From: a phage
Assembly: GCA_030820665.1 (NCBI GenBank)
Contig: GCA_030820665.1_4852.1
DNA: 17,779 nt
Reading direction: 5' to 3' (one strand)
Within the stretch, counting starts at the first letter, position 1. Every line of letters begins with the position of its first letter. The notes under the pieces were generated by a model, which made no database searches, was not told where the DNA came from, and saw nothing but the letters and a program-made list of their open reading frames with translations. The position numbers and the translations under genes were made by a program. Shown in pieces: positions 1-9,676 of the stretch.

Positions 1-168
1 GGAGTAAAAGGTGTGAGTTGGGATGCAGAGAAAAATAAATGGAAGGCGCATTGCAGGGTTTTTGGGAAAAAATATACAGTAGGTAGGTTTTCATCAAAAG
101 AATATGCTGAGAGAGCCGTGGCGGAGTTCAGAGAGAAACATCACGGGGAGTTTTTTAATCATGGCTAG
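1..168 (+). CDS. HNH-family homing endonuclease, C-terminal fragment (AP2-like DNA-binding domain); 5' end lies outside the window
   Basis: Frame 1 is open from base 1 to TAG at 166-168. The translation GVKGVSWDAEKNKWKAHCRVFGKKYTVGRFSSKEYAERAVAEFREKHHGEFFNHG closely parallels the C-termini of the two complete HNH proteins in this window (GIKGVNW...NKWHARVGVNGKRFTVGYFS...EFRRMHHNEF and SGVKDVVWD...RWRVQITANGKHYYGGRFSS). Confidence 0.65.
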   Translation, partial: GVKGVSWDAEKNKWKAHCRVFGKKYTVGRFSSKEYAERAVAEFREKHHGEFFNHG

Positions 169-1585
169 AAAAAGACTCTCAAGTGTGGCAATCGAAAAAC
201 TTGAACAGGCGGTTGGAAACTCAACTTCAAAGCCTGAGTCTGCTGTATTTGGCATTGTTAACAAACTGCTTGCCGATGGTACGCCTAATGTTATAAAGCG
301 CCTAAAAATGACATCAACAGGCGTATCTGAAACAAACGAAGAACCAACAATCCTCATTCCCGAGAGAATGGAATTACTGCTTTATCCTCGCCGTTTCAAA
401 GTGTTCTATGGAGGTAGGGGCAGCGGAAAGACGGCTAACGTTGTTTCTTACCTTATAGAAAAGGCAAGATTTCGCAACAGCCGCGTCGGATGCTTTCGTG
501 AGATACAGAACTCAATCAAAGAATCAAGCTATGCCGAACTGGTTGATGAGATAAACAGGAAAGGACACACTCAGGAATATCGTTGCGTGGATGGTGAAAT
601 AACCCACCATTCAACGAGGTCAAAGTTTGTTTTCCGTGGTTTGTGGCGAAATATAACCGCCATTAAGGGTATGGCTGGCCTTACAGATGTATTCTGTGAA
701 GAATCAGAAAATATCAGCCAGGTTTCATGGGATACGCTAATCCCAACAGTCCGCGCCGCTGGCTCTGAAATTATTATTGTTTTTAACCCAAACAAAGAGA
801 CGGACCCGACATGGACTAACTTTGTTGCGCCTTATATTGACAAGATGGTTGACGGCATATATCAGGATGATGACATCGTTGTTGTTAATGTTAATTACAT
901 CCACAACCCGTGGTTCACGGAAGAACTTAAGCAGCACATGAACCAGATGAAAGCTGTGGATTATGATCGCTACCTTTGGGTGTATGAAGGCTTATTCAAC
1001 AAGCGGTCTGACGAAGCTGTTCTCGGGGGGAAATGGCAAACACTCGACTTTGAACCATCTCCTGAGTGGGGTGGGCCTTACTACGGCATTGACTTTGGTT
1101 TTTCTCAGGATGCAACAGCAGCAACTGAATCATATGTAGAAGATTTGGGTGATGGACGAAGAAACCTGTATATCTATCGTGACTTTGCAAAGGTTGGCCT
1201 TGAGATAACTGACACGCCGGAAGCGATGCGCTCAGCATTCCCAAATTCAGAGAAGTACAGATGGTATGGGGATTGCGCAAGACCTGAAACAATAAGCCAT
1301 ATACGACGCTCTGGATTCGATATTCATCCGTGCGCAAAATGGCCGGGGAGCATTGAGGACGGTATTACGTGGCTGCGTGGGTGTGACAGGATTTACGTGC
1401 ACTCAAGATGCAGGCACGTCATTGAAGAGATGACAATGTACAGCTATAAGGTGGACAAATTAACAGGTAACATACTCCCTGATATAGTTGATAAATACAA
1501 TCACGCGATTGATAGTTTACGCTATGGACTTGGAGATCACATCGTTCAACGCGGTAGCGGGATGCTAATCCGGCGCAGGCGATAA
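161..1585 (+). CDS. Terminase large subunit (TerL)
   Basis: Long ORF (track 104-1585) with a Walker A P-loop, VFYGGRGSGKT. ATG at 161 is preferred because GGAG lies about 10 nt upstream; 104 and 308 are alternatives. Size and position upstream of the portal fit a packaging ATPase/nuclease. Confidence 0.88.
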   Translation: MARKRLSSVAIEKLEQAVGNSTSKPESAVFGIVNKLLADGTPNVIKRLKMTSTGVSETNEEPTILIPERMELLLYPRRFKVFYGGRGSGKTANVVSYLIEKARFRNSRVGCFREIQNSIKESSYAELVDEINRKGHTQEYRCVDGEITHHSTRSKFVFRGLWRNITAIKGMAGLTDVFCEESENISQVSWDTLIPTVRAAGSEIIIVFNPNKETDPTWTNFVAPYIDKMVDGIYQDDDIVVVNVNYIHNPWFTEELKQHMNQMKAVDYDRYLWVYEGLFNKRSDEAVLGGKWQTLDFEPSPEWGGPYYGIDFGFSQDATAATESYVEDLGDGRRNLYIYRDFAKVGLEITDTPEAMRSAFPNSEKYRWYGDCARPETISHIRRSGFDIHPCAKWPGSIEDGITWLRGCDRIYVHSRCRHVIEEMTMYSYKVDKLTGNILPDIVDKYNHAIDSLRYGLGDHIVQRGSGMLIRRRR

Positions 1586-1601
1586 ATCCGCATCACCACA
1601 C

Positions 1602-1633
1602 TTGACCAATCTACACCGAGCGCATAGTATAAT
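1602..1633 (+). promoter_or_regulatory. Candidate sigma70-type promoter for the small-gene cluster
   Basis: TTGACC at 1602-1607, 17-nt spacer, TAGTAT at 1625-1630 (overlapping a perfect TATAAT at 1628-1633); about 30 nt upstream of the ATG at 1662. Confidence 0.35.
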
Positions 1634-1661
1634 CTACATCAGGCTTATCGGAGATATCACT

Positions 1662-1868
1662 ATGCGCAGCTATGCAGGGTTCACACAGGAGGAGAAAGAG
1701 CAGGTTTATTCACTGGCTCGGGCTGGTGTGCCAGATGAGGTGATTTGCCGTCGGTATGACATCGACGAGGATTTCCTGCTGCGCGTTATTGATGATGTCT
1801 TCGTTAACCTGCAAGAGAAGCGCGGATATAAAGGTATCTGCTGCAAGAATGATTTTTTGAGAGGGTGA
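1662..1868 (+). CDS. Hypothetical small protein (68 aa)
   Basis: ATG 1662 with GGAG about 8 nt upstream; ends at TGA 1866-1868 inside the SD/start of the next gene. No recognisable motif. Confidence 0.5.
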   Translation: MRSYAGFTQEEKEQVYSLARAGVPDEVICRRYDIDEDFLLRVIDDVFVNLQEKRGYKGICCKNDFLRG

Positions 1869-1872
1869 TGTG

Positions 1873-2067
1873 ATGATTAAGATGAGCAAGATGAGCAACA
1901 GAAGCAAGGTTTGCAGGATTGCTTTATTGCCAATCTTCCTGCCTGTGTGGTTGTTATGGGTTTTATTTTCTGGGGCGAGAAATCTATTTGAGTATCTTGA
2001 ATTTTGTCAGGCAAAGGTTATACGAAAATTCCATGATGTCATTGATAAGTGGTTTCCGCTTGGTTGA
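1873..2067 (+). CDS. Hypothetical small membrane protein (one predicted TM helix)
   Basis: GTG 1870 / ATG 1873 follows GAGGGTGATGTG; hydrophobic stretch IALLPIFLPVWLLWVLF. Confidence 0.5.
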   Translation: MIKMSKMSNRSKVCRIALLPIFLPVWLLWVLFSGARNLFEYLEFCQAKVIRKFHDVIDKWFPLG

Positions 2068-2076
2068 GGTGATGTG

Positions 2077-2244
2077 ATGAAAATTGAAGAAACAGTTAAC
2101 TGCATGGCGATTAATGTGTTCACGGATTGCGATACCATTTGCGTGCAGGATTTCACTGGCGATTATGTCAGGATTGACAAACACCAAGCCGCGCAGCTAA
2201 TCGAAGTCCTGCAACGCTGGGTTAATGGTGAGGAAATTGAGTGA
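2077..2244 (+). CDS. Hypothetical small protein (55 aa; below the ORF-track cutoff)
   Basis: ATG 2077 preceded by GAGGTGATGTG. Translates MKIEETVNCMAINVFTDCDTICVQDFTGDYVRIDKHQAAQLIEVLQRWVNGEEIE. Its TGA (2242-2244) overlaps the next ATG (2244). Confidence 0.4.
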   Translation: MKIEETVNCMAINVFTDCDTICVQDFTGDYVRIDKHQAAQLIEVLQRWVNGEEIE

Positions 2245-2429
2245 TGAGTGTTTATTTCATTCATGGTGAAGTGCTTGATGGTGGTGATGTTGTTACCAAG
2301 GTTTGCGCGACATCTACGGCATCAAACGCCAGTGAAGCGTTTGATTGGTTTTTGGGTTGCGAATTGGTTGTAAAGTACGAAATAAAAGGCTACGACGTCA
2401 TCATTGATAAACTGGAAAAGGTGGAGTGA
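2244..2429 (+). CDS. Hypothetical small protein (61 aa)
   Basis: TGATG stop/start overlap with the upstream gene; ends at TGA 2427-2429, overlapping the next start. Confidence 0.5.
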   Translation: MSVYFIHGEVLDGGDVVTKVCATSTASNASEAFDWFLGCELVVKYEIKGYDVIIDKLEKVE

Positions 2430-2626
2430 TGCATTTCAAATCACTAAATACCATAAGGAACGAGATGGTTGGTGGCAAATATAAAAACCACAGAGACGAA
2501 GTAGTAACCGTTGTTAATGTTGTTGGCGCTGGCGGTGGTTATCAGGTCCATTTTAATTACGGCATGCCATACAATGTGGTTTGCGGACTTGGCAAGTTCA
2601 GGCAGCGATACCCGCATAAGGTTTAG
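2429..2626 (+). CDS. Hypothetical small protein (65 aa), glycine-rich beta-type
   Basis: GGTGGAGTGATG junction (SD plus overlapping stop/start); followed by the terminator at 2647-2677. Confidence 0.5.
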   Translation: MHFKSLNTIRNEMVGGKYKNHRDEVVTVVNVVGAGGGYQVHFNYGMPYNVVCGLGKFRQRYPHKV

Positions 2627-2640
2627 CCATATACCATCCA

Positions 2641-2649
2641 TGCTATAAT
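2641..2649 (+). promoter_or_regulatory. Candidate extended -10 promoter (TGcTATAAT) upstream of the portal gene
   Basis: TG at 2641-2642 and TATAAT at 2644-2649; weak -35. The -10 overlaps the left arm of the terminator hairpin. Confidence 0.3.
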
Positions 2650-2677
2650 CCCATCCAACGTGATGGGATTTTTTATT
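2647..2677 (+). terminator. Rho-independent terminator
   Basis: Perfect 9-bp stem AATCCCATC (2647-2655) / GATGGGATT (2662-2670), 6-nt loop, then a T-run. Confidence 0.7.
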
Positions 2678-2685
2678 GGTGACAT

Positions 2686-4098
2686 ATGTCAAAAATTGAT
2701 GCACTAAACGCTTATATACGCGACCGCGTAGCGAACAATAACCGGGCGATCCAGCAGCAACGGCTTTGCGCTGGCGGGAAGAATCTGGACCAGAAGCGAG
2801 AGTTCATGTGGAAGGAACTTGGCTACCCGCAGGAAATCACCGCCGAGATGTTCCGCTATGCCTATGAGCGACACCCAGCCGCCGCCGCTGGAATTAACCG
2901 CATTATTAATAAATGTTGGCAGAAATACCCTGAAGTTGTCGAAGATGGCGAGGATGACAAGAACTCAACGACATGGGAGCTGTCCATCAACGACATGATG
3001 AAGCGCGCCTACCCGTTCATCAAGGAGGCTGATAAGCGCAACGCCATCAACCGCTATTCCGCTGTTATCCTGCAAATCCGTGACGGCAAACAGTGGAGTG
3101 AGCCTGTAGACATTACAAAAACCCGCCGCATTAAAGATAAATCCATCGCTCGCTTTATTCCGGTATGGGAAGAGCAGCTACGCGTTAGCGCATGGAATAA
3201 CGACGAAACCAGCGAAGACTACGGAATGCCTGAGATGTACGAATATCAGGAAAGCGCCGTGGAGGACTTCGATAGCGATGGCAAGCCTGAGCGTTCCGTG
3301 CAGATTCACCCTGACCGCATCATCATTCTGGCTGAGGGTAGTTTTGACGGCAGTATGTTCAGTGGCATCCCGATGTTGCGTGCTGGCTACAATAGCCTTA
3401 TCGACATGGCTAAGGTTTCAGGTAGTTCAGCAGAAGGATTCCTGAAGAATGCCAGCCGTCAACTGGCTGTTAACTACACGAAGGACAACGTAACGCCAGC
3501 AAGCCTTGCGCAGTCTATGGGTGTCGATATTGAAGAACTCACTGACATCATGAATGAGAACATCGAAGCGCTAAACTCAGGCATCGACGCAGCTATGTTC
3601 ACAATGGGGGCGGATGCAAAGGTGCTTGCCGTAACGCCAGCCGACCCGAAACCAACATGGGAAGTGGCTGCCAACCAGTTCGCTGCATCAATGGCGCTTC
3701 CGTTCACCGTCATTTTTGGTCAGCAAACCGGACGCCTTGCGAGTGATGAGGACAAGATGCAGGAGGCGATGACAGCCAAGCAGCGCCGCGAAACGTGGGT
3801 TGATTATGTCATCTCAATGTTCGTTGAGCGCATGATTCAGTTCGGCATTGTCGATAAAGCACCGGCAAATGGCTACAAGGTTAAGTGGGATGATCTGCTT
3901 GCCCCATCAGAGCTGGATAAAGCTGAATTGCTGTCCAAGCTCGCCACTGCGAACAAGTCCTTCTTTGATGCTGGTCAATCTGCACTGCTGACCGTCGATG
4001 AAGCTCGCGGCATGGTTTGCATGGAGCCAATTGAACTTGACGAAAGCTATCGCGAAGACACACCGCCGGAAGACGAAAATGAAGATACTCCGGTTTAA
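2686..4098 (+). CDS. Portal protein (putative)
   Basis: 470-aa ORF immediately downstream of TerL and upstream of a MuF-like gene, with an acidic C-terminal tail ([11 protein letters not shown]). Called from size and gene order, not from a specific motif. Confidence 0.7.
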
Positions 4099-5112: not shown

Positions 5113-5757
5113 TTAATCATCCAGTTTCACGCCTGGAATTTTTCCTGCTGCAATGGCTTCATAAATTAGCTTGGCCTCGTCCTCGCGCCTGTAATCTTGA
5201 GCTGCCATTTCTAACACCGCGCAGATAGACTCAAGTACAGCCTCATGCTTCTTTTCTGCTTCTGTGCGTAGTGGTTTTAGGCTTTCCGGTACGAAGCAGC
5301 ATGACCGACCAGCACCACCTTCATCCCAATAGCAAACAGCCACATCGTTTCCGTCCGTTGTTGTCTTGTGCGCTACAACTTCCATTTCAGTGCCAGCATC
5401 AGGAATCCAGTCATTGCAGTATCCTAACTTTGGATTAAAGAAGAATTCTACTTTTGCACCAACTGGCGGCAGGCCTTCTCCATTCCATGTCTGCTTTTGC
5501 AATGCTGCTAGCGCGGATTCATACAAGTCGCGAGTTATCATACAATAATCCGTGGCTACGCTGACATAGCGACCGGGTATGGGGATTGCCACGGTGTACT
5601 GAAATGGCACATCAAAACCATCGCTATATCCCTTTGGGAAACAAAAAGCAATTGTGATACTGTCACCATTGAAATCACCAACTCGACACCTCTCAGCACC
5701 ATCAGGCCACCCACCACGCTTAGGTAATTCTTGAACTAACAGGTCGATAAGTTTCAT
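5113..5757 (-). CDS. Hypothetical protein (214 aa), distal gene of the minus-strand operon
   Basis: Uninterrupted minus-strand ORF; its start overlaps the stop of the upstream gene (5754-5757). No motif recognised. Confidence 0.65.
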   Translation of the reverse strand: MKLIDLLVQELPKRGGWPDGAERCRVGDFNGDSITIAFCFPKGYSDGFDVPFQYTVAIPIPGRYVSVATDYCMITRDLYESALAALQKQTWNGEGLPPVGAKVEFFFNPKLGYCNDWIPDAGTEMEVVAHKTTTDGNDVAVCYWDEGGAGRSCCFVPESLKPLRTEAEKKHEAVLESICAVLEMAAQDYRREDEAKLIYEAIAAGKIPGVKLDD

Positions 5758-6068
5758 TTTGTTTCTCCCAATGCTTTATTAACCGCGGCACGTGCATTAT
5801 CCAGAGCGCGACGCTTGCTTGATGTTGTCCAGCATTTTCCGGAGTGGTCGTCGTAGATTTCCAGAAGTTGCTGGAGTGCTGATAACAGGTCAGGAGATGC
5901 CGCTATTAGCCTTGCGTTATGCCATTGCTCGGTTTTATCACCGTTATATGTTGGAGTGAATGCAACCTCGACACCAATATCCGAGATAACATCTGGCGCG
6001 TTATCATCACCAACAACAACTTCCCATTTTCCATGCGTACCTTTAAATTCTTTCACATCCAACCTCAC
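5754..6068 (-). CDS. Hypothetical protein (104 aa), GTG start
   Basis: Minus ORF with no internal Met; the GTG start at 6068 overlaps the TGA of the upstream mini-ORF (GTGA). Confidence 0.55.
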   Translation of the reverse strand: MRLDVKEFKGTHGKWEVVVGDDNAPDVISDIGVEVAFTPTYNGDKTEQWHNARLIAASPDLLSALQQLLEIYDDHSGKCWTTSSKRRALDNARAAVNKALGETK

Positions 6069-6208
6069 TTAATATACTCAACAATCTCAACTTCACGCAT
6101 CTGCACCAGGCCAAATGGTGCAACCACCTTACCGCACGGACGGATTTTGATTTGCTCAAGGTTGAACACTCCGCAGCGTCCGTTTTCTTTGAATTTGACC
6201 ATTACCAT
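6065..6208 (-). CDS. Hypothetical mini-protein (47 aa)
   Basis: Hand translation of the minus strand: MVMVKFKENGRCGVFNLEQIKIRPCGKVVAPFGLVQMREVEIVEYIK. Packed between neighbours with overlapping stop/start codons. Confidence 0.4.
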   Translation of the reverse strand: MVMVKFKENGRCGVFNLEQIKIRPCGKVVAPFGLVQMREVEIVEYIK

Positions 6209-6210
6209 AA

Positions 6211-6369
6211 TTAATACCCGTTTTTCTTGGCTAATTGTTGCGCACGTTTCTTCGTGTACCCACAGGCCATCAGGCGCTTGACCTCGTTGCGGCGCCTTGC
6301 GAAATGGTACTCACGAGAATTAAATGCACATTCGTTGCTAAAGTTAACATTACGTGGATTCATCTTCAT
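6211..6369 (-). CDS. Hypothetical basic mini-protein (52 aa), first gene of the minus-strand operon
   Basis: Hand translation: MKMNPRNVNFSNECAFNSREYHFARRRNEVKRLMACGYTKKRAQQLAKKNGY. Strong SD (GAGGTGATGAAG then ATG) on the minus strand; Lys/Arg-rich C-terminal half. Confidence 0.45.
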   Translation of the reverse strand: MKMNPRNVNFSNECAFNSREYHFARRRNEVKRLMACGYTKKRAQQLAKKNGY

Positions 6370-6432
6370 CACCTCATTCATCACTTGATGTAGATACTAT
6401 GCACCAACAACCAATCTACGTCAACACCATTG

Positions 6433-6467: not shown

Positions 6468-6746
6468 ATGAAACTATCGCAACGAGGCGTGGAGACGTTT
6501 GGAATTACCGATGCCGTGAATATATCGCCTTACATCACTACCGAGACAACGCAGAATCAGTTCGACGCGCTGGCAAGTCTTGCCACCGACATTGGCATTT
6601 ACGCGTTCCGTAAATCAACGCTTCTGAAGAAGCACAACCTCCGCTGCTTCTCATGTGCTGTTGCGCATTTCATCGCGTGGGGCGAGAAGACTGGCGACAA
6701 AGCAAAACGCAAAGCTGAAAAAGAGGTTTACTGGTATGGCTATTAG
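6468..6746 (+). CDS. GH24 (T4/P22-type) lysozyme-like protein, truncated; probably catalytically inactive
   Basis: Strong SD (GGAGG, 5-nt spacer). The C-terminal half, TQNQFDALASLATDIGIYAFRKSTLLKKHNLR...AHFIAWGEKTGDK, matches the conserved C-lobe of GH24 phage lysozymes (recalled P22 gp19-type NQNQYDALCSL..IG.SAF.GSTVLRQLNL...AF..W). The N-terminal catalytic region is reduced to about 27 residues. Confidence 0.55.
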   Translation: MKLSQRGVETFGITDAVNISPYITTETTQNQFDALASLATDIGIYAFRKSTLLKKHNLRCFSCAVAHFIAWGEKTGDKAKRKAEKEVYWYGY

Positions 6747-7200
6747 TAAAAACATGAAGGCGTTTCTGGATATGCTGGCGTACAGCGAGGGCACTGATAA
6801 CGGGCGGCAGAAAACCAATAATCATGGTTATGATGTGATTGTTGGCGGCTCACTGTTTACCGACTATTCCGACCACCCGCGCAAGCTGATTAGCCTGCCA
6901 AGGCTGGGCATTAAATCCACCGCCGCCGGTCGCTATCAGGTACTGGCTAAGTTTTATGATGCGTACAAAAAGCAATTGCGTTTACCGGACTTCTCCCCCG
7001 CATCGCAGGACGCCATTGCAATGCAGCTAATCCGTGAATGCAAGGCCACCGCTGATATTGAGGCTGGTCGCATTGCTGATGCCATCCATAAATGCCGCTC
7101 CCGCTGGGCCTCATTGCCGGGCGCTGGGTATGGTCAGCATGAGCAGAAGCTGGATAAGCTGATTCAGGTATACAAAGAGGCTGGCGGAGCTGTGGCATGA
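6736..7200 (+). CDS. Endolysin, lambda R-type lytic transglycosylase
   Basis: From the ATG at 6736 (AAGAGG SD upstream) the protein is MAISKNMKAFLDMLAYSEGTDNGRQKTNNHGYDVIVGG...WASLPGAGYGQ..., near-colinear with lambda R as recalled, including the catalytic Glu context LAYSEGTD. Confidence 0.88.
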   Translation: MAISKNMKAFLDMLAYSEGTDNGRQKTNNHGYDVIVGGSLFTDYSDHPRKLISLPRLGIKSTAAGRYQVLAKFYDAYKKQLRLPDFSPASQDAIAMQLIRECKATADIEAGRIADAIHKCRSRWASLPGAGYGQHEQKLDKLIQVYKEAGGAVA

Positions 7201-9577: not shown

Positions 9578-9676
9578 ATTTACTACTCCTTCTCGAAAAA
9601 CATCTTGACGTTTCTACATCATTTAGTCAATGCTTGTTGACGTAGATTGTACCACAACGGAAAAGGTGATGTGGAA
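9578..9676. promoter_or_regulatory. Divergent intergenic region, probable promoter(s) for the 9577 minus operon and the 9677 plus block
   Basis: 99-bp AT-rich gap between divergently oriented genes. TTGACG (9606-9611) and TTGACG (9637-9642) on the plus strand; TTGACT and TACAAT-like hexamers on the minus strand. Spacing is not ideal for any single pair. Confidence 0.25.

Follow-up and report, generated by a model that had tools for sequence, protein, structure and literature searches.

What occupies the interval between the large terminase (TerL) and portal genes of small siphophages, and how do the genes in it come and go? We address this question in a 17,779-nt stretch of phage DNA (GenBank assembly GCA_030820665.1, contig GCA_030820665.1_4852.1; hereafter, the window), in which an earlier sequence-only reading had pointed to five open reading frames (ORFs) of 55-68 aa between TerL and the portal gene, joined by a reiterated junction that combines a Shine-Dalgarno sequence (SD), a stop codon and a start codon. 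All five micro-genes (O1 to O5) are found, on the plus strand and with lengths of 68, 64, 55, 61 and 65 aa, and their reiterated junction is confirmed from the sequence and from related phages. The window belongs to a Skatevirus-type siphophage: Escherichia phage HC6, to which its array region is near-identical, and its relative Salmonella phage Skate are both members of the Skatevirus cluster of small siphoviruses (PMC11990801); membership of the Guernseyvirinae was considered and dropped in favor of this cluster (PMC11990801). Our comparison set consists of 36 loci, namely 34 IMG/VR loci retrieved with the portal protein plus HC6 (locus L001) and Skate (L043), and array gene families are named by c-numbers (c5, c30, c67 and so on). 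We consider it likely that the five genes form one version of a hypervariable accessory-gene operon of the Skatevirus group, held in a fixed slot between TerL and portal, with O1 as its core gene and other genes gained and lost at the SD/stop/start junction.

The array begins in the same way in every locus and is highly variable thereafter. An O1 homolog opens all 36 arrays, with 91-100% amino-acid identity, while O2, O3, O4 and O5 occur in 5, 22, 28 and 6 loci, respectively, O3 usually being paired with O4, and are mixed in many orders with at least 30 other small-gene families. Six different gene families follow the O1 tail and five the O4 tail, with the similarity stopping exactly at the ATG. 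Array genes show 92-97% nucleotide identity between phages whose portals are at ~70% nucleotide identity; O5, for instance, is 97% identical at the nucleotide level to its counterpart in Skate, whose portal body is at ~70% nucleotide (67% amino-acid) identity.

Recent events are visible at the level of single junctions. The TerL-array-portal region is 99.9% identical to that of HC6, and positions 800-4000 differ by one substitution and one 390-bp indel, by which the window lacks two whole genes of HC6. Two copies of a perfect 13-nt repeat, AGGTGGAGTGATG, stand 390 bp apart in HC6, and the window has kept one of them. O2 itself lies between the two copies of a further perfect 13-nt direct repeat, GGTGATGTGATGA (1864-1876 and 2068-2080, within J1 and J2), and in other phages O1 is joined directly to O3. 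Repeats likewise enclose families c67 (16 nt) and c30 (13 nt), and unrelated genes have 3′ tails of 20-23 nt in common (c81/c3 and c10/c34, for example). The window is not a clone of HC6: 75% of its whole length aligns, at 93.6% identity, with 800-4000 near-identical, and identity drops abruptly near the 3′ end of the portal gene (~4000), which indicates a recent exchange of the TerL-array-portal segment.

The junctions of the array are short and built to one pattern. The strings listed in the sequence-only reading are all present, within 0-3 nt of the coordinates it had given: GAGGGTGATGTGATG at 1861-1875 (J1), where O1 and O2 are separated by 4 nt; GAGGTGATGTGATGA at 2066-2080 (J2), where O2 and O3 are separated by 9 nt; and GAGTGATG at 2239-2246 (J3) and GGTGGAGTGATG at 2420-2431 (J4), where O3/O4 and O4/O5 each share one base (TGATG). 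With at most one mismatch, GGTGRWGTGATG occurs four times in the 17.8-kb window (0.34 expected), and its three exact copies are all array junctions. Among 39 distinct types of tightly spaced gene pairs in the related loci, the consensus is RAGGTGRWGTG followed directly by the ATG, with GG at -9/-8 in 32/39 types, G at -3 in 36/39, and T and G at -2 and -1 in 32/39. GTGATG ends 34 of 59 junction types and, counted by upstream gene, 11 of 15 unrelated families, compared with none of ~21 starts elsewhere in the window. An overlap of exactly 1 nt is seen at 48 of 132 array junctions among relatives. GAGGTGAT is an SD complementary to the 3′ end of 16S rRNA (5′-AUCACCUC) and ends ~7 nt before the ATG, and the GTG ahead of the ATG provides an overlapping TGA stop. 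At J1 and J2, TGA stops in all three frames stand directly ahead of the ATG. The hexamer GTGATG is also abundant in the window at large (34 copies on both strands versus 11.9 expected, eight of them in 1865-2665), and it does not join the genes of a second small-gene array, on the minus strand at 5113-6384.

This layout, with the SD inside the 3′ end of the upstream gene, TGATG overlaps and gaps of 4-9 nt, is that of tight translational coupling. The earlier claim that coupling is obligate goes further than the layout supports, since each of the downstream genes is preceded by a suitably spaced SD of its own.

Both ends of the array are islands of conservation between a diverged TerL and a diverged portal body. 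On the left, the ~80 bp upstream of O1 (promoter block P_A) are almost invariant among relatives, and P_A plus O1 retain 90-96% DNA identity, compared with 68-73% at the 3′ end of TerL. A candidate promoter had been placed at 1602-1633. A promoter-like site is indeed recovered there in a promoter scan and is conserved, but the TATAAT at 1628-1633 is not, many loci having TAGTATATC instead; the conserved elements are a -35 TTGACC at 1602-1607, a 17-nt spacer and a -10 TAGTAT at 1625-1630. Two AATCTACAY boxes also lie in P_A, one at 1608-1616 and the other at 1631-1639. A perfect 9-bp inverted repeat, GCGCATAGT / ACTATGCGC (1620-1628 and 1659-1667), links the O1 -10 region with the O1 start codon, its second arm varying slightly among relatives; in transcripts reading through from TerL, this repeat could occlude the O1 start.

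On the right, the terminator proposed earlier was recovered in our scan and is conserved across relatives. Its hairpin covaries: four sequence variants are found, all of which retain the pairing and the T-run, pointing to a functional structure, most simply an intrinsic terminator. In every locus, CATGnTATAAT leads into the hairpin, followed by the T-run and then by the portal ATG. In a remote relative, whose terminator is a separate upstream element, TGnTATAAT is nevertheless retained, which argues for a portal promoter; the conserved extended -10 element probably restarts transcription for the portal gene. The stretch 2627-2760, comprising the terminator and the first ~75 nt of the portal gene, has 81-97% nucleotide identity, compared with 69-75% for the portal body. 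From this conservation and from the signals themselves, we infer promoter activity at the left end of the array and terminator activity at its right end.

These features suggest a simple mode of operation. A sigma70-type P_A would drive O1, a three-helix protein that is probably DNA-binding, and then a variable string of promoterless micro-genes, here O2-O5, and the intrinsic terminator would close the transcription unit, since any RNA begun upstream would fold into the hairpin and end there. Transcripts initiated at TGCTATAAT would lack the 5′ arm of the hairpin, because the -10 element overlaps that arm, and would therefore be expected to escape termination and read into the portal gene. Within the array, a strong SD ~7 nt from the ATG, combined with a TGA at or just ahead of the start, would let ribosomes move along the array largely irrespective of local context. 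With the same 8-16-nt junction at every gene boundary, recombination between two of its copies would delete or insert whole genes in register. Likewise, the conserved flanks (P_A plus O1 on one side, the terminator plus the 5′ end of the portal gene on the other) could allow exchange of the whole array between diverged phages. The phage group encodes an exonuclease VIII, an AAA ATPase and an SSB, which plausibly form a short-homology recombination module.

A more ambitious version of this model is possible, though we hold it only tentatively. Here the array would be a plug-and-play device, in which RAGGTGRWGTGATG is kept as the docking junction where the phage-encoded exonuclease VIII, annealing ATPase and SSB insert or remove promoterless micro-genes in register, and a gene docked there retains expression, aided at some junctions by the three-frame TGA stops. 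O1 would be a global regulator that binds AATCTACRTCA boxes, present in P_A and in nearly every other intergenic promoter region, and would thus tie expression of the cargo to the infection programme.

The AlphaFold2 model of O1 (mean predicted local distance difference test score, pLDDT, 81.6) has helices at residues 9-20, 25-31 and 36-53, in a three-helix arrangement resembling a helix-turn-helix (HTH). The 10-mer AATCTACRYC occurs four times in the window, compared with 0.07 expected, and 10 times in Skate, compared with 0.26 expected. With few exceptions, the copies fall between genes, in promoter regions that are often divergent, and some form inverted pairs. AATCTACRYC looks like an operator or promoter element of a phage-wide regulon, and its boxes are probably read by a phage-wide regulator. 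Being invariant and HTH-like, O1 is a candidate for this reader. A second predicted promoter on the minus strand (6424-6390; TTGACGTAGATTG...GCATAGTATCTACATCA), conserved in most related loci, would drive an array of four small genes that runs leftward (6384-5113); the core GCATAGTAT..CTACATCA is common to this promoter and P_A.

Could the likeness of the junctions arise without any role in recombination? Selection for strong ribosome binding and tight coupling could have produced it by convergence, and random illegitimate recombination followed by selection for in-register products would also place breakpoints at gene boundaries. Two observations fit this explanation directly. Several gene starts outside the array in Skate carry the same type of motif, which is therefore partly just the strong ribosome-binding site that this phage favors, concentrated in the array; and many presence/absence events share only 3-7 nt at their borders, which is compatible with illegitimate recombination and subsequent selection. 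The clustering of high-scoring segment pair ends near gene starts (39% of cases lie within 15 nt of a start, versus 12% of positions) is explained by either model. Selection alone accounts less readily for perfect repeats of 13-16 nt exactly at the borders of recent indels, given that we estimate ~0.01 exact 13-mer repeats by chance in 1.1 kb, or for a GTG at -3 to -1 that persists even between genes, where it serves neither coding nor the SD. The 20-23-nt tails common to unrelated genes and the uniform register, with a 1-nt overlap so often exact, are likewise against it. Since the 3-7-nt borders are common and boundary breakpoints are what selection alone would leave, we still regard this explanation as unlikely rather than negligible.

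The motif copies outside the Skate array, at a few gene starts, and the short borders also weigh against our own reading of a junction-based accessory operon, and they are not alone in doing so. The -10 of P_A agrees with the consensus at only 4/6 positions. O1 has no Pfam match, and its best Foldseek matches, although they are to HTH domains, are non-significant (E ~1). In addition, seszw, the subject of a genome-reduction study (PMC9825161), retains O1 and the adjacent small gene c5 in 70/70 deposited genomes of its type, CRISPR genome-reduced mutants among them, although many of the 70 have lost the HNH endonuclease of the array. Not every array gene is thus clearly dispensable, and the retention of O1 in particular suggests that it is not freely so.

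What the products do bears on a further alternative. The locus could be a morphogenesis module, with O1-O5, or at least O1 and O4, acting as head-assembly or portal-vertex components or as a packaging factor; we consider this improbable. O1 was rejected as the small terminase, for which it is too small and shows no co-variation with the swapped TerL types; in Skate, a 138-aa candidate for that role precedes TerL, on the other side of the genome ends. A profile search with O1 against 1.84 billion representatives returned only 16 clusters, all of small proteins without annotation, and a sequence search of the PDB with O1 returned nothing meaningful. The predicted structure of O4 is of high quality (pLDDT 95.1) with a generic fold. 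O3 and O4 are acidic, whereas O2 and O5 are basic, and O2 is a predicted membrane protein. From architecture and turnover, our best guess is that O1 is a regulator and that O2-O5 are non-structural accessory early proteins, with roles in host takeover, superinfection exclusion or counter-defence.

Among the other array families, Pfam and PHROG scans mostly gave no annotation, and several families are small membrane proteins as judged by eye. The exceptions are an HslV-like Ntn peptidase (c34; phrog_1040) in L012, L013, L015, L032 and L009, an HTH_3 protein (c57) in L028 and L005, both of them larger cargo, and an HNH-AP2 endonuclease. Pfam and PHROGs, the sources scanned here in place of a dedicated anti-defence library, gave no anti-defence annotation for any array member. 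A Tad2-like gene (anti-Thoeris family) is present at 7652-7912 of L038, in another small-gene block of that related contig.

The sequence-only reading had taken TerL and portal to be normally adjacent and the array to be a cassette inserted between them. A foreign cassette (moron) that arrived recently would agree with the promoter-like site and terminator that the array possesses and with the patchiness of O2-O5. However, the two genes are adjacent in 0/36 related loci, in which the gap between them ranges from 541 to 2399 bp, and conservation of the promoter, O1 and the terminator spans all 36 loci and extends to remote relatives, so that we find a recent insertion very unlikely. TerL is itself a mosaic among relatives (31-100% amino-acid identity), with Terminase_3 and Terminase_6 types swapped beside the same portal type, even where the portals are near-identical, and O1 is kept even where the portal is at 67-70% and TerL at 31-37% amino-acid identity. 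O1 is detected in 151 phage records, and its remote homologs (~65% identity and lower) also lie just upstream of a Phage_portal_3 / Mu_F pair. Since TerL and portal are never adjacent, O1 is universal and remote O1 homologs precede the same portal type, the comparison of these sequences makes the locus ancestral, with O1 a core gene and O2-O5 accessory. The possibility that these are conserved core genes thus holds in part, for O1 (36/36 loci), and fails for the patchy O2-O5. Of the earlier overall interpretation, a single transcription unit with a promoter-like site and a terminator stands; insertion between adjacent genes and the obligate nature of the coupling do not. A homing endonuclease of the HNH_3-AP2 type lies upstream of TerL (13-168), the same family (c42) being present within some arrays, and the TerL swaps may be driven by homing.

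That the five ORFs are genuine genes is supported frame by frame. All five have PHROG matches, each to its own family. The substitutions among relatives at codon positions 1/2/3 number 28/8/404 for O1 (404 of 440 at position 3), 10/4/49 for O3 (49 of 63 at position 3), 26/33/78 for O4 and 14/5/28 for O5. The signal is weaker for O2 (17/5/22), whose frame is open in all four of its sequence variants while the other frames are interrupted by stops. A transmembrane helix had been proposed for one product, which matches O2: its residues 13-31 (19 residues) have a mean Kyte-Doolittle hydropathy of 2.21. An in-frame GTG at 1870 precedes the O2 start, and a 9-nt tandem repeat (AAGATGAGC, 2.2 copies, 1879-1898) encodes MSKMSKMS at the O2 N-terminus, with one copy fewer, in frame, in L009. 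A Pfam scan of O1-O5 and an Rfam scan of the window returned no family.

An artefact, in the form of a single longer gene split by frameshifts or of a true minus-strand gene in place of O5, is the least credible explanation: the ORFs are very short and HC6 annotates a minus-strand ORF across O5, but boundaries and frames are the same across dozens of genomes sequenced independently of one another, a separate PHROG family matches each ORF, third-position changes are in excess in the frame of each, and the minus-strand ORF has no PHROG match and would cross the terminator into the portal gene. The frameshift alternative, which the sequence-only reading had itself raised, is rejected on the recurrence of boundaries and the codon-position signal of each frame. 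The minus-strand ORF, which also fits the substitutions worse, was rejected as well, and the HC6 call (HC6_0009, HC6 3135-3332, equivalent to window 2444-2641) is probably, judging from these sequences, a mis-annotation in the public record.

A conserved operon slot with junction-based turnover has partial parallels in several known systems. The nearest of these is the shuffling of modules by PeSL (promoter-early stem-loop) elements, known from the hyperplastic regions of T4-type phages (Arbiol et al. 2010, PMC2839356; Comeau et al. 2014, PMC4122927). In both cases, small ORFs of unknown function are flanked by copies of short regulatory motifs, two such copies delimit indels between close relatives (in the array, 390 bp and a 13-nt repeat), and variable genes occupy a fixed region flanked by core genes. 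In some PeSL subclasses, a -10 element overlaps the stem-loop, so that transcripts escape termination (PMC2839356), and the pre-portal element of the array resembles one such subclass. Unlike the array, PeSLs are intergenic composites of promoter and terminator that make each ORF its own transcription unit, whereas the array has 8-16-nt translational junctions (SD, stop, start) within one operon. In our scan, only the two array ends carry promoter-like sites, with none at J1-J4, and no hairpins are found at these junctions, the sole terminator-like hairpin with a proper T-run being that at 2647-2677. What sets the array apart is that its repeats are translational rather than transcriptional. 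A literature search on junction-microhomology shuffling in phages found nothing relevant.

Other comparisons are looser. Morons, reportedly described in lambdoid phages, are defined by their absence from relatives. Like them, the array, as judged from its sequence and conservation, is a non-structural unit with its own promoter and terminator inside a late morphogenesis region; unlike them, it is present in 36/36 loci (with O1 in 151 records), opens with a core gene and owes its variation to turnover of single genes inside it. Anti-CRISPR (Acr) or other anti-defence operons with an Aca regulator combine a strong promoter, small unrelated genes with fast turnover and one conserved small HTH gene, and in Mu-like Pseudomonas phages anti-CRISPR operons lie inside the head-gene region. 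The array likewise holds small unrelated genes with fast turnover behind a promoter-like site, and a conserved small gene whose HTH nature is modelled only; it differs in that this conserved gene is first, not last; its candidate operators are the two AATCTACAY boxes, also found at other promoters, and the 9-bp inverted repeat of P_A. As in integrons, one promoter would serve promoterless cassettes that are gained and lost at a recurring junction. However, the array has no folded recombination sites: its junctions are 8-16-nt SD/stop/start strings rather than attI/attC sites, no integrase is found in the window or in the Skate genome annotation, and exchange would proceed by homology or microhomology at translation signals. 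Finally, in lambdoid phages, short boundary or linker sequences between modules are reportedly conserved where genes meet, and have been put forward as favored sites of crossover. Those linkers are sporadic and disputed, whereas most boundaries of the array carry its motif, and repeat-bounded indels of recent origin can be observed in it.

Table 1. Features of the TerL-portal interval and candidate regulatory sites in the window
Feature	Position	Strand	Description
TerL, large terminase (left neighbour)	161-1585	+	PHROG terminase large subunit, E 3e-53
Promoter block P_A (candidate)	1582-1661	+	Promoter scan; near-invariant in 36 loci
O1	1662-1868	+	68 aa; phrog_13301, E 1e-47
J1	1858-1875	+	TGAGAGGGTGATGTGATG; SD plus ATG, TGA stops in all three frames
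O2	1873-2067	+	64 aa; basic, one transmembrane helix (predicted); weak match to phrog_20630, E 7e-5
J2	2065-2079	+	TGAGGTGATGTGATG
O3	2077-2244	+	55 aa; acidic, isoelectric point 4.3; phrog_13627, E 2e-30
J3	2230-2246	+	GAGGAAATTGAGTGATG; TGATG overlap
O4	2244-2429	+	61 aa; acidic, alpha+beta; accessory
J4	2418-2431	+	AAGGTGGAGTGATG; site of the 390-bp two-gene indel relative to HC6
O5	2429-2626	+	65 aa; basic; phrog_36357, E 4.5e-20
Extended -10-like element	2641-2649	+	TGCTATAAT; overlaps the terminator 5′ arm
Intrinsic terminator (predicted)	2647-2677	+	9-bp stem AATCCCATC / GATGGGATT, then T-run
Portal (right neighbour)	2686-4098	+	phrog_146, E 1e-106; first ~75 nt part of the conserved right flank
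AATCTACRYC sites	1608-1617, 1631-1640, 6413-6422	+	Fuller form CAATCTACRTCAA
AATCTACRYC site	9639-9648	-	10-mer count

Elsewhere in the window, the overlapping ORFs 6468-6746 and 6655-7200 both match endolysin families, and their Skate equivalents are annotated as separate endolysins of the glycosidase and transglycosylase types.

The array is best described as a conserved, insulated operon slot, comparable to PeSL-type shuffling and to moron-like and Aca-like operons. Small siphophages of the Skatevirus group are under development for the biocontrol of Salmonella and E. coli and as chassis for synthetic biology, and the array offers a natural place to insert cargo: a defined slot, insulated for expression, in which the predicted promoter and terminator are conserved and the junction can be reused. 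It is also where genes with fast turnover gather, those likeliest to decide host-specific success through exclusion, takeover or counter-defence. More broadly, the array bears on the old question of whether the joints of mosaic phage genomes form preferentially at certain short sequences or anywhere, with selection acting afterwards; because its junction repeats are short, countable and easily mutated, this question can be put to the test here.

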